Assembly: GCA_964349825.1 (NCBI GenBank)
Contig: CAYGHM010000004.1
Coordinates: 1-49,744, forward strand
Source: an uncultured Gammaproteobacteria bacterium
GTDB taxonomy: Bacteria > Patescibacteriota > Patescibacteriia > Magasanikbacterales > UBA922
Length of the DNA stretch: 49,744 nucleotides
Reading direction: 5' to 3'
Made by a program: the position numbers and the translations under genes. Under the pieces are notes generated by a model. The model was given only the letters and a program-made list of their open reading frames with translations, was not told the DNA's origin and did not search any database. Of the stretch, positions 3,701 through 49,744 are shown one piece after another. The first letter of the stretch is position 1. The number at the start of each line of letters is the position of its first letter.

Positions 3701-6099
3701 GGTCAAGTAATGCAACATCCTATTATGTGGAAAATACAACCGCAGGAACCAATTCTGGTTGGACAGGAGCGACTTCGTATGAATTTAGTGGCCTTGTTTG
3801 TGGGCGTACCTATTCTTTTACTGTAAAGGGAAGAAATGGTGATTTAGTGGAAACTGCTACTGCTTCGACATCAGTAACTACCGCGACCTGTCCTTCGTCT
3901 GGATTTATTCCACCGCCGACTCCAACACCAACACCGGAACCAGCACCAGAGCCTGTTGCAGAACCAGTTATTGAAGCACCTGTGGTGGACGAACCAGTGG
4001 TAGCAGAACCCGAGCCTGAACCAGTACAAGAAGCTAAGGTAGTTAAACCGCAAGAAAAATCAGTTGAGAAAGCAGTGGTGCCCCCCGCAACAACTGCAGA
4101 ACAGGTAGCACCAAATACACAGGGGTCAGATCCTGCTCCTATTGCGAGTGCTCCCGGTTCAACAGGTGTGCCGATCAGTACGGTTAATCTTCCTGAAGTA
4201 GGGGTAAAAGTGGTGAAGTTTGGGGAAGTATTAAAAGTAACCAACAATCGATTGGTTGATTTGGCTTTAGATACAACATATCCAAAAGTAAGTATTCAAG
4301 ACCAGTCAGGAAAGAGTATTGAGCAAATAAATGCAGATGCGACTATACCCTGGGAACTTAATGGTGAAGATGGCCGAAAGTGTATTACCGCGACATTTTA
4401 TGATGTCAACGGAAACATGGCAAAACAAAAAGTTACCTGTGTTGATTTGGATACGATAGCGCCACCTCCTCCACAAGTTAATATAGTTGATACAAAAATT
4501 TCATTTGAACAGCAGGGAAAGAAAGTAACCGTTCGTGGTAATGGTGAACCAGAATCGGTTATTGAACTTCGTATTTATCGTATTGGGTCGCTTCCAAAAA
4601 CAGCGATGAACGCATCGTCTTTATGGGATATGTTTATTGCCCCTGCTTATGCGGCAACAGAAGGTTTTTTCTTGACTAAGACTGATGCGAATGGAAAATG
4701 GTCATTTACTTTTCCTGATATTTTTGAAGAGGGAAAATATGAAATTGAAGCAATGGCAAAAGATGAAGCAGGGAATACGTCAGCTCCGGTAAAAACGAGT
4801 TTTTTAGTGGCTATTGAAACAGCAGAAGCCGTAGTTCAGGCAGTGGCAGAAGTTATTAATAATCCAGAAGTTGAGCGTATTAATGAAACATACGTCGCGC
4901 CTGCTATCGTGGGTGTTGGTGTTGCCAATGTTGCGGCGACCGGCTCTCAGCTTCCTCAAGTACTTATTTATTTGAAATTTTTGTTCACACAGCCAATTTT
5001 ATTATTACGCCGTAGAAAACATAAAACATGGGGAACGGTGTACAATGCATTTACCAAACAACCTGTTGATCTTGCCACTGTACGGTTAGTTCATCATGAA
5101 CAAGGAAATATAATCCGCTCCCAAGTAACAGATACACAGGGACGTTATTATATGTTTGGTGAGCCGGGAGAATATCGTTTAGAGGTTGATAAAAATGGAT
5201 TCGGTGGTATTAGTGGTATTGTGAAAGAAAAAGAAGAAGATGGTACCTATTTGCGTTTGTATCACGGAGATCCATTGAAGATAAATAGTGAACATACAGA
5301 GATTAATTACAGTATTCCACTTGAACCGCTTGGCCAGGATAAACCTGTAGAAAAATTAATTCGCGAACGCGCCATCCAATTTGTTCAGCATACTATTTCT
5401 TTGGCCGGTGTTACTGCAACAGGTGTGTCTTTTATCATTTCCCCTGAATTGAAAGTTGGTCTTTTCTTTGCCTTGCATCTCGTTTTCTATGCTATTTCTT
5501 ATAAATTTACTCATATAAAATTACCAGAATCTTTTGGTACGGTTCGTGCGGCAAATAATAAAAAAGGACTTCATAATGTTGTCGTTCGTGTTTTTGATTC
5601 AGCATATAATAAACTAGTCACTACTACACTTACTGATAGAAAAGGAAGATATGCAGCGCTTGTGGGTCCGAGTGTCTATTACGTTGCCTACGAAAAGCCG
5701 GGATATGAAACCAAAAAGAGCGAAACTATTGATTATGGCAGCAATAAAACTCAAGGCATGGGTGGTATGATTGTGCGAGATGAAGAGTTACCGCCGTTTG
5801 TTGCTGGGAAAACAAGTAAAGAAACGATTGTTTCTTTACCAACTTCAGAAGAAAAATCGCCTGTTGCTGTTGTAAAAAATAAACTGCGCGCATCATCTGC
5901 ACCATTATCTGCCAAGTCGGAAAAATATACGGTTATGCCAACGGTGGAAGAAAAAAAACCCGTGGTTACCCAGGCAAAACCTGTGTTAGATAGTACATCA
6001 ATGAATGTGGATATGCCGATATTGCCAAAGAAAAAAAGTAAGAGTGATGATGACTCTATTGCTGACGATATCATTGCACAGTGGAAGCAGAATCACTAA
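763..6099 (+). CDS. Giant membrane-anchored surface protein (about 1,778 aa). It has two Gly-rich beta-helix-like modules, FN3/Ig-like segments, a Pro-rich linker, and C-terminal TM helices interleaved with CarboxypepD_reg-like domains.
   Basis: ORF track gives 694..6099, but ATG 694 lies inside the tsf terminator, so the start was moved to ATG 763 (MRQILRTYKRF plus hydrophobic helix). Duplicated Gly-rich modules lie at about nt 1189-1891 and 2257-2926. Linker is PTPTPTPEPAPEPVAEP. C-terminal segments GTVYNAFTKQPV..GRYYMFGEPGEYRLEV and GTVRAANNKKGL..GRYAALVGPSVYYVAYEKPGYE are flanked by hydrophobic helices. Confidence 0.8.
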   Translation: MRQILRTYKRFALISFLIFSVVWNFVIGAIFSFDHQEVQALAVTWVGAAAGTWETAANWSSGVVPTIDDNVSITSSTANIVVTISSGQTALFNQLILGGDATYTAELILVGNLSTSGSALGNITVASKGIITQNNTTTQTIIGTLLVESGGVLTHTANTAAHLYEVDFSAATITLNAGGFVSSTGRGFVGGTLANNGSGPGGGIYNGGSDGGISTDAGSGGGHGGNGGYHKDGLGAGIGYCDVSSVSTLGSGGGGGGNATGGAGGGLIRLQASGTATINGTLSALGTDGGEDGARDAGGGAGGGIYVSANTIAGSPDSLSVVGGGSGNGNSGGAGGGGCILFSYVNTNSITSATMNGGVGYQNAGSGKFLYKKTGENGTLVVTGSSSDGAYTPQAVSSLTVDDLRLANSAIYTVTSSEALILSAASPFSSGDGTGKLIIESGGTFTPTSTVNFTIANATLQLSRNATFTSSSTLDIIIGNSGTFDLRNYTVSAPLTLDTLTIQSGGTMTHGANTTAQTHVVFVSATTVDIQSGGTVNVTGKGYTGGAALAAGNGPGAGVYATAEAGSGAGHGGAGGADANSDAGGAAYCVTTTPATIGSGGGGGGDAIGGAGGGLASFTTTGNLTVAGSIVASGSAGAAGGTGARDAGGGAGGAIKLYGVGSVTVSGSLTVNGGASGANGAQDGGGGGGGCTYIEYGSLTLSGSHSESGGTGSTAGSSGNYGAAALNGTPTVTSYISPSVARDGEGNVTVTTTVSDADNNTVSLYVDHSLDGGSTWASSSIMSASATSGSPSAGTGVITSISNTSGGNALTFVWSSFDDAVTSTSNVKLRITPFDGTISGTTVSSSLFTIDNIEPTVPGNLSASVTSTTSLTLGFGSVSSDTNFSEYKILYHTGSSFNLASSTAFSSSSDLNLGSVSFGGAATTTISGLTANTQYVFRTAVYDSYGNTNFSAASLAGYTAASTPSSVSGSLSGSAATISWSSNATSYYVENTTAGTNSGWTGATSYEFSGLVCGRTYSFTVKGRNGDLVETATASTSVTTATCPSSGFIPPPTPTPTPEPAPEPVAEPVIEAPVVDEPVVAEPEPEPVQEAKVVKPQEKSVEKAVVPPATTAEQVAPNTQGSDPAPIASAPGSTGVPISTVNLPEVGVKVVKFGEVLKVTNNRLVDLALDTTYPKVSIQDQSGKSIEQINADATIPWELNGEDGRKCITATFYDVNGNMAKQKVTCVDLDTIAPPPPQVNIVDTKISFEQQGKKVTVRGNGEPESVIELRIYRIGSLPKTAMNASSLWDMFIAPAYAATEGFFLTKTDANGKWSFTFPDIFEEGKYEIEAMAKDEAGNTSAPVKTSFLVAIETAEAVVQAVAEVINNPEVERINETYVAPAIVGVGVANVAATGSQLPQVLIYLKFLFTQPILLLRRRKHKTWGTVYNAFTKQPVDLATVRLVHHEQGNIIRSQVTDTQGRYYMFGEPGEYRLEVDKNGFGGISGIVKEKEEDGTYLRLYHGDPLKINSEHTEINYSIPLEPLGQDKPVEKLIRERAIQFVQHTISLAGVTATGVSFIISPELKVGLFFALHLVFYAISYKFTHIKLPESFGTVRAANNKKGLHNVVVRVFDSAYNKLVTTTLTDRKGRYAALVGPSVYYVAYEKPGYETKKSETIDYGSNKTQGMGGMIVRDEELPPFVAGKTSKETIVSLPTSEEKSPVAVVKNKLRASSAPLSAKSEKYTVMPTVEEKKPVVTQAKPVLDSTSMNVDMPILPKKKSKSDDDSIADDIIAQWKQNH

Positions 6100-49323: not shown

Positions 49324-49352
49324 TTGACAAAGATGGTTCTTTGTGCTATAAT
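49324..49352 (+). promoter_or_regulatory. Full consensus sigma-70 promoter: TTGACA, 17-nt spacer, TGc, TATAAT
   Basis: TTGACA at 49324-29, a 17-nt spacer, TG at 49344-45 and TATAAT at 49347-52. This is the best promoter match in the window. Confidence 0.7.
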
Positions 49353-49357
49353 GCTCA

Positions 49358-49737
49358 GTTGTCATAAAGACAGTCAATCCAAGCCAGTAACACTATACTA
49401 TATATACCAAAAGACTGGACCGAAGACGAAATATAATGACAATTGTGGAGATCTAGAGCAAATACTTGGTTTAAAAGGAGACTGATAAAGCAAGTACCTC
49501 TCAAGACCTTCATCCTGTGCCCGGGGATGTAGAAAGCTGTGTTCGTTTCGATCCAAGTGGTCAAAAACGAACTTGCCTTTCTGCATCCACGACAAGCATG
49601 GGGGTGTGCTTATAGGCTTTGGCTGGCTCAGGCTCGCGATAGACCAATGACACACCTTCTTGGATGCAGTATCCCACTTCGGTGGAATAAACCCAAACAT
49701 CATAAGTCCCCGGCATTTGTCCGGGGCTTTGTTATTT
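49358..49737 (+). ncRNA. Candidate structured non-coding RNA of unknown class (about 380 nt)
   Basis: Lies between the consensus promoter and a terminator. No plus-strand ORF of 60 aa or more. Perfect helices: CTGCATCCA/TGGATGCAG (49581-89 with 49661-69), GTTCGTTT/AAACGAAC (49541-48 with 49565-72), GGTGTG/CACACC, CCAC-UUCG-GTGG (49674-85) and TTGTCAT/ATGACAA. Confidence 0.4.
49708..49737 (+). terminator. Intrinsic terminator (or riboswitch-type attenuator) at the end of the structured region
   Basis: CCCCGG-CATTTGT-CCGGGG followed by CTTTGTTATTT. Confidence 0.6.
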
Positions 49738-49744
49738 ATAAACA

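Follow-up and report, generated by a model that had tools for sequence, protein, structure and literature searches.

An undescribed hairpin RNA family, nearly universal in one class of Patescibacteria, with an alternative helix in its leader

Introduction

What kind of RNA is encoded at the very end of a bacterial contig, where a consensus promoter and an intrinsic terminator enclose a stretch in which no known RNA class can be recognised? The locus in question covers positions 49324-49736 of the DNA analysed here (the window, 49,744 nucleotides (nt) in length), which is the whole of contig C4 of a genome assembly from the Magasanikbacterales comprising 974 kilobases (kb) in 39 contigs with a completeness of 98 %. 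The Patescibacteria or candidate phyla radiation (CPR), to which this organism belongs, account for a large share of bacterial diversity; their genomes are very small, and several machines considered universal are lacking, among them the signal recognition particle (SRP).

An earlier reading of the bare letters (the original prediction) had seen at this locus a heavily base-paired transcript of about 380 nt without a credible open reading frame (ORF), and had offered two explanations for it, a novel structured small RNA (sRNA) or a long riboswitch-like leader of a gene beyond the contig edge. The analysis presented here shows that the locus is a stand-alone gene and a member of an undescribed family of structured RNAs, which is confined to a single class of Patescibacteria and nearly universal there. 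That the gene and its structure are real is as good as certain. The best explanation for the whole of the data, with a probability of roughly 0.55, is a stand-alone, trans-acting housekeeping hairpin RNA with a gated precursor.

A conserved hairpin with two invariant surfaces

In a BLAST comparison with 60 relatives only positions 49580-49672 of the window were matched, with 70-86 % identity; within the same family 32 of 36 genomes gave a match, and several further families of the order did so as well. The conserved unit is a hairpin of about 95 nt (49577-49672), the parts of which are listed in Table 1. As an isolated 96-nt core it folds with -38.5 kcal/mol (z = -3.6). For the 5' part of the transcript, about 165 nt in length, a homologue was detected neither in the 60 relatives nor in the closest metagenome relatives, and the alignment remains confined to the core. 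Hence, the structured transcript of about 380 nt stands as far as folding is concerned (-120.5 kcal/mol for the predicted 377 nt, z = -4.0 compared to shuffles), whereas its conservation is limited to the hairpin.

The structure of this unit is supported by compensatory changes. An alignment of 19 sequences leads to one hairpin in which 11 of 30 pairs are compensatory. In a larger alignment (A2) of 68 distinct sequences, for which slid partners and 500 shuffles served as controls, 94.5 % of the pair cells hold standard pairs in comparison to 36-51 % with a slid partner. Changes on both sides were found at 22 of the 30 pairs, and none of the 500 shuffles reaches the observed values. Covariation in homologous regions, which had been suggested as a check along with the original prediction, is therefore strong. 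The frequent G-U pairs are compatible with the plus strand only. The perfect helices reported beforehand, i.e. the 9 base pairs (bp) of P1, the 8-bp helix upstream of the core and GGTGTG (49603) with CACACC (49651), all proved to be exact complements.

Sequence conservation is concentrated at the two ends of the hairpin. The bulge CGACAAGCAU next to the closing helix is identical in all 19 family sequences obtained by BLAST, and it is also retained in members which were found by a covariance model without the search motif. Interior to P2 a variable internal loop and short inner helices lead to the conserved tip. Here the loop sequence varies, being UCAG in the window and often UUCG or UACG in others; of the 68 sequences, 65 retain the G-U pair and 67 the G-C pair next to it. 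These data show two sequence-invariant surfaces at opposite ends of a rod of about 25 bp, the basal 10-nt bulge and the tip with its G-U pair. The copy in the window displays all the traits by which the family is defined, namely the hairpin of about 95 nt, the invariant CCACGACAAGCAUGG and UUCUUGG strands, the conserved tip and the neighbourhood of vanW and clpP. It scores 94.2 bits with the covariance model R1 and 88.5 bits with R2.

The same alignments bear on the question whether a protein could be encoded instead. ORFs do exist in the window, including one of 101 amino acids (aa) on the minus strand (49398-49703) and a small one on the plus strand, and protein-level conservation of either had been named as an observation that would speak against an RNA gene. 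However, even the best frame runs through the core without a stop in just 49 of 84 loci, substitutions within the helices are compensatory, and insertions or deletions of 1-2 nt are common, so that the probability of a coding function is practically negligible. A further ORF of 61 aa begins upstream of the -10 box, as had been noted before.

Table 1 Features of the RNA gene in the window; all coordinates refer to the 49,744-nt stretch
Feature	Position	Strand	Remarks
Promoter, sigma-70 type	49324-49352	+	TTGACA 49324-49329, 17-nt spacer ending TGc (extended -10), TATAAT 49347-49352
5' leader, lineage-specific	49358-49521	+	start at about 49358-49360, inferred from the -10 position
S1, 5' strand of P0	49522-49536	+	CG-G-GGAUGUAGAAAG; pairs with 49577-49591
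P0 apical part	49537-49576	+	includes 8-bp helix 49541-49548 / 49565-49572; in minimum-free-energy folds
S2, shared strand	49577-49591	+	pairs with S1 (P0) or, via 49581-49589, with 49661-49669 (P1)
Core hairpin	49581-49669	+	P1, invariant bulge, P2, inner helices, tip
P1 closing helix	49581-49589 / 49661-49669	+	CUGCAUCCA / UGGAUGCAG, 9 bp
Invariant 10-nt bulge CGACAAGCAU	49590-49599	+	faces single U at 49660
P2 helix	49600-49608 / 49651-49659	+	covariation-supported alignment
Conserved tip	49622-49637	+	two pairs, 1x1 mismatch, then G-U, G-C, C-G closing a 4-nt loop
3' hairpin P6	49674-49685	+	CCAC-UUCG-GUGG, perfect complement
Intrinsic terminator	49708-49736	+	CCCCGG, 7-nt loop, CCGGGG (49708-49726), U-rich tail; called by terminator scan

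Promoter, leader and terminator

The promoter matches the consensus at 12 of 12 positions and has the additional TG, exactly as originally read, and is the sole site of this quality on the plus strand of the region. Among 82 homologous loci a promoter with at most one mismatch per hexamer was found in 58, at a distance of 30-331 nt from the hairpin, and the leader lengths span the same range. A terminator-like hairpin followed by a T-run is located 3' of the core in 69 of the 82 loci (median distance 57 nt). In the window both the UUCG-capped hairpin P6 and the terminator with its T-rich tail are present; at the position of P6 the relatives also have a short hairpin, the sequence of which is unrelated. 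The higher GC content that had been ascribed to the 3' half is real, with 0.49 for this half and 0.52 for the core as against 0.40 for the leader and 0.41 for the window.

A pseudoknot between AAGTGG (49555-49560) and CCACTT (49674-49679) had also been proposed. The two strands are complementary, and the interaction amounts to -15.8 kcal/mol in the window; however, it is not conserved, matched loci being no better than mismatched ones. Likewise, the idea that the leader is a decayed tandem copy of the core was rejected, as its alignment score stays below that of shuffles.

The contig ends 8 nt past the terminator. RNase P RNA, clpP and 16S ribosomal RNA (rRNA) are all absent from the 98 % complete assembly, which is probably due to assembly gaps; the runs of N are ordinary scaffold gaps of 10 or 100 bases.

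Distribution and genomic neighbourhood

The covariance model R1 was run on loci fetched by a 17-mer scan of species-representative genomes and recovered 71 matches on the plus strand, in addition to two weak ones on the reverse strand. With the broader model R2 the RNA was detected in 131 of 151 genomes drawn evenly from the class (about 87 %), and in 123 of the 136 high-quality ones. The copy number is almost always one, tandem pairs being present in a few genomes. In an even sample of the phylum all six genomes of the same class contain the RNA, while 144 genomes from outside the class gave no match, even at E <= 0.1. Public records bearing the motif are named Magasanikbacteria, Uhrbacteria and Komeilibacteria. 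Many of the records with a high-scoring copy are titled 'uncultured Gammaproteobacteria bacterium' (third party annotation (TPA) assemblies), and these labels look wrong.

The surroundings of the gene were compared at 90 loci. The RNA gene sits, in either orientation, in the gap that separates a gene for a VanW-domain protein from a convergent clpP, and this synteny is kept in 66 of the loci. The vanW gene is found 5' of the RNA on the same strand in 39 loci and 3' of it in convergent orientation in 22; clpP is located 3' and convergent in 30 and upstream in 18. In about a third of the 90 loci the RNA gene is inverted relative to vanW and clpP while the gap is unchanged, which implies that small inversions restricted to the RNA gene have occurred repeatedly. 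In the window the RNA follows directly after the gene of a 652-aa VanW-domain protein (PF04294, 4.6e-36). The closest metagenome relatives, which share 59-62 % identity with the queried C-terminal part of VanW (best segment; records near the window excluded), show the order vanW, promoter, leader of about 220 nt, core, terminator and convergent clpP. As clpP is missing from the assembly of the window, it probably lies in the gap just past the contig end.

This neighbourhood decides on the second explanation that had been offered, according to which the RNA would act in cis, as a leader or attenuator, on a gene past the contig end. The contig stops so soon after the terminator that any downstream gene is out of view, and in 5 of the 90 loci a vanW-like gene does follow on the same strand, 400-960 nt away. 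However, these five are the only loci with a co-oriented downstream gene within 1.2 kb, in contrast to 52 loci in which the next gene (clpP or vanW-like) is convergent. Both orientations of the RNA occur within the same gap, the RNA has its own terminator, and in the closest metagenome relatives the terminator is followed by the convergent clpP. A role as a riboswitch-like leader is therefore very improbable, and this part of the original prediction had to be given up.

Comparison with known RNA families

A scan of the window and 19 homologous loci against Rfam 15, at gathering and E-value thresholds, yielded only transfer RNAs (tRNAs) and noise; the impression that no known class can be recognised is in line with this result, as no family reached the threshold or a credible E-value at the locus. 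RNase P RNA (RF00010 / RF00011) has no match there. It was found in 38 of 41 genomes, i.e. that of the window and 40 relatives, in 36 cases above the cut-off (100-192 bits), and the RNase P RNA loci of the relatives differ from the homologues of the hairpin RNA. Transfer-messenger RNA (tmRNA, RF00023) is also without a match at the locus, the tmRNA of this genome being located at C5:42871-43266 (126.8 bits). An origin as a fragment or mimic of rRNA is not supported either: R2 in unfiltered mode finds nothing in the rrn operon of E. coli or in three 23S rRNA loci of the class, and the invariant stretch has neither a complement nor a same-sense copy in E. coli rRNA or in these loci. The 23S rRNA genes of class members span 3.7-4.1 kb in comparison to 2.9 kb of the model (G009:C7:26487-30550, G220:C1:337400-341134), which indicates large insertions.

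The hairpin RNA shares several properties with 6S RNA and the mycobacterial Ms1, since all of them are rod-like, have a strong promoter of their own and lack an adjacent regulatory target gene. By analogy, it could represent a second, minimal RNA of this type that binds RNA polymerase; a promoter-driven, abundant-looking rod would fit this idea, and carriage by a phage (see below) would suit an RNA that modulates transcription. A 6S RNA was taken here to be a rod of about 150-200 nt with a large two-sided central bubble and a match to the model. However, RF00013 finds nothing on the plus strand of the locus, the core of about 95 nt is half as long, and its 10-nt bulge is one-sided with a single nucleotide opposite. 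Furthermore, 6S RNAs keep a shape and not a sequence of 15 nt, a strict invariance as in the hairpin RNA being foreign to them, and a separate 6S-like locus already exists in the genome. The latter (C19:3584-3726, minus strand) scores 36.7 bits, which is below the Rfam cut-off of 46.4, and follows ndk on the same strand at a distance of about 1 kb, the interval being free of ORFs of 90 aa or more. All in all, a 6S- or Ms1-like identity appears distinctly unlikely.

The bacterial SRP (4.5S) RNA resembles the hairpin RNA in size (about 100 nt), in the fold, one long irregular hairpin with paired 5' and 3' ends, in the location of the conserved sequence, namely the tip and an asymmetric internal loop, as well as in being encoded by a single-copy stand-alone gene that is nearly universal within its range. 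A highly divergent SRP RNA would also fill a vacancy, as none was detected in the 41 genomes searched. However, neither RF00169 nor RF01854 gives a match at E <= 10 in the region or anywhere in the genome, and the protein partners Ffh and FtsY were found neither in this genome nor in any of 150 sampled genomes of the phylum. The M domain of Ffh (PF02978) gave no match in any of 151 genomes sampled evenly across the phylum, and the SRP GTPase domain (PF00448) gave one match in this sample, which comprises the Walker A motif only. A tblastn search with E. coli Ffh against the genome of the window returned nothing below E = 0.4, and the DTAGR motif occurs in no ORF of at least 150 aa of this genome. 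The absence of both ffh and ffs from Parcubacteria has been published (Nelson and Stegen, PMC4508563), and together these data suggest that the loss of SRP may extend to the whole phylum. The remaining phylum lacks SRP and also lacks the hairpin RNA, which is found in one class only. Since the loss is phylum-wide and the RNA class-specific, the RNA is not a stand-in tied to the loss of SRP, and its identity with a divergent SRP RNA is hardly credible.

Lineage-specific orphan structured RNAs, such as the motifs of PMC5737381, are likewise known from covariation and conserved nucleotides only and have a narrow range. Unlike them, the hairpin RNA is uncatalogued (Rfam 15), occurs in about 87 % of the genomes of its class and looks more housekeeping-like than most. 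A literature search did not find a paper describing the RNA. Among the public sequencing runs listed as containing the sequence, 14 are DNA runs and none is an RNA run. The first explanation of the original prediction, a novel structured sRNA, is therefore borne out by a gene reaching from promoter to terminator, by strong covariation and by the lack of a match in Rfam 15.

An alternative hairpin in the leader

In the order to which the window belongs, the hairpin RNA is preceded by a second helix, P0, which competes with its closing helix. A strand equivalent to S1 is located 20-45 nt upstream of the core in about 55 loci of the order (consensus CGAGGAUAUAGAG). Its complementarity covers the 5' strand of P1 as well as the 3-8 nt in front of this helix, and often extends to the CG of the invariant CCACG. 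The length of P0 is 12-17 bp, and its apical part differs in sequence and length between loci.

The two strands S1 and S2 covary in 50 distinct loci, a U or C in the P1 strand being met by an A or G. At the variable position of P1 there are 33 A-U and 15 G-C pairs, which corresponds to 98 % pairing in comparison to 76 % when strands of different loci are combined. The extension of P0 beyond P1 is paired in 72-82 % per position as against 43-59 % in the cross-locus control. Its pairing total is 4.30 versus 3.10, a value reached by none of 2000 permutations. As P0 and P1 share 8 nt, they are mutually exclusive. At the level of sequence comparison, both helices are thereby shown to be under selection. 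For transcripts that retain the leader, stability predictions favour the P0 form in 46 of 51 loci (median -4.9 kcal/mol). In the window the difference amounts to -10 kcal/mol, and the minimum-free-energy fold of the whole transcript likewise contains P0. P0 contains a U-G pair at the position of a C-G pair in P1. Other orders are without P0, and their P1 comprises 13 bp instead.

Tandem copies of the hairpin, about 40-120 nt apart, were observed in a few genomes (L132 with copies at 3-99 and 140-250, G269, G251 and G310). In L132 the 3' strand of the first copy occupies the place which S1, the competing strand, has in Magasanikbacteria. This observation hints that S1 may descend from a decayed tandem copy.

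A comparable situation has been reported for the SRP RNA of E. coli, in which a non-native 5' hairpin rearranges during co-transcriptional folding. In both RNAs an early 5' hairpin takes a strand that is later needed by the 3' end. In contrast to the E. coli hairpin, P0 is formed in part by a leader that does not belong to the conserved RNA. It is maintained by covariation throughout the order, and its predicted stability exceeds that of the final helix.

Two covarying and mutually exclusive helices, combined with invariant nucleotides that cluster in an internal loop, might also be expected of a ligand-sensing or self-processing RNA, in which the asymmetric loop would form a pocket and P0/P1 the switch. 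However, the 90 loci reveal no gene in cis that could be controlled, P0 is missing in other orders and in the phage copy described below, and the riboswitch and ribozyme families of Rfam 15 are unmatched. Such a function is considered improbable.

A copy on a phage contig

No match to the RNA was found in INPHARED, and two scans of IMG/VR for the exact motif gave only a chance match inside a gene. A looser scan of IMG/VR yielded one true copy among 53 matches, located on contig 3300009529_000046 (locus L204, 4087-4183, minus strand). This copy is full-length and scores 52 bits. It is flanked by the gene of the large terminase subunit (4215-5822), immediately downstream of which it lies, and by an ORF of 670 aa; the small terminase gene adjoins the large one. 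The phage copy is leaderless and without P0; its start lies a few bases ahead of P1 and adjoins an extended -10 box on the upstream side. Its pairing is kept, with a compensated P2 of its own. No tRNAs are present on the phage stretch that was fetched. The copy suggests that a virus of these bacteria profits from the RNA.

Proposed role of the RNA

The RNA could be a base-pairing regulatory sRNA that uses the bulge together with its flanks (CCACGACAAGCAUGG) as a seed for a conserved messenger RNA (mRNA) or a stable RNA. Once P1 has formed the bulge is unpaired, its conservation is absolute, and a 16-nt perfect complement of the GCAUCCACGACAAGCA stretch occurs in the genome of the window at C1:65225-65240 (plus strand), inside the gene of a translational GTPase (BipA/LepA-like) over its LLVVDA codons. 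However, this site is perfect in the genome of the window only; relatives have at least two mismatches or no site at all, so that the complementarity is probably due to chance. Four further exact complements of the 10-mer in the genome are close to the chance expectation of about two, and none of them coincides with a gene start. Moreover, complements are missing from E. coli rRNA and the three 23S loci of the class, as already mentioned, as well as from the tmRNA locus, and the seeds of regulatory sRNAs are seldom invariant over about 90 families. A seed function is thus unlikely, though less so than any of the other alternatives.

Two invariant surfaces separated by a rod that covaries freely, the presence of just one copy, a consensus promoter and a nearly universal occurrence in the class form, in combination, the pattern of a protein-bound housekeeping RNA, and for this reason a role in a ribonucleoprotein is favoured. 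The occurrence of either orientation in the gap separating vanW and clpP supports an action in trans. The RNA would accordingly be an abundant housekeeping RNA, the invariant surfaces of which would be recognised by a partner that is itself conserved, most probably a protein. In the order of the window the primary transcript may be a precursor, as the two covarying and mutually exclusive helices suggest. Here positions 49522-49536 would fold onto the 5' strand of P1 and the adjoining start of the invariant bulge to give P0. The mature hairpin would then form only once the leader has been cut off, once the 3' strand has displaced it or once the partner has captured the P1 form, and the leader would serve as an auto-inhibitory element or folding gate. 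This mechanism, a trans-acting ribonucleoprotein role with a gated precursor, is proposed tentatively, at somewhat less than even odds.

Several points weigh against the proposed role. Transcript ends, abundance and processing are all inferred, as is the partner of the RNA. A protein family that shares the class-restricted distribution of the RNA was not found, and VanW was rejected as a specific partner, its gene being present in 117 of 151 genomes across the phylum. The energies of P0 and P1 were predicted with a nearest-neighbour model, and P1 comes out ahead in 5 of 51 loci. The permutation figures overstate the significance, since related genomes are not independent. Finally, P0 could be a transient co-transcriptional helix devoid of any regulatory meaning.

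Significance

New in this work are the counts for class and phylum, the exclusion of SRP by way of its missing proteins, the orientation flips between vanW and clpP and the covarying alternative hairpin in the leader. Carried furthest, the gated-precursor proposal would see the hairpin as the RNA subunit of a novel housekeeping ribonucleoprotein that arose in one class of the CPR and is of enough value for a phage of these bacteria to have a leaderless copy of its own. Magasanikbacteria would first produce an inactive 'pro-RNA', the leader hairpin of which has to be removed or displaced to expose the invariant binding surface. This extended picture is doubtful as a whole.

A family model allows annotators to recognise these seemingly 'empty' intergenic regions, and the hairpin represents a short and well-defined bait for pull-down experiments. 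Furthermore, RNA biology gains an example from nature in which two helices covary and exclude each other, and the phage-borne copy opens a second route to the function. For the bacteria themselves, a single copy in about 87 % of the class, an invariant stretch of 15 nt and a consensus promoter make it very likely that the RNA plays a central role.

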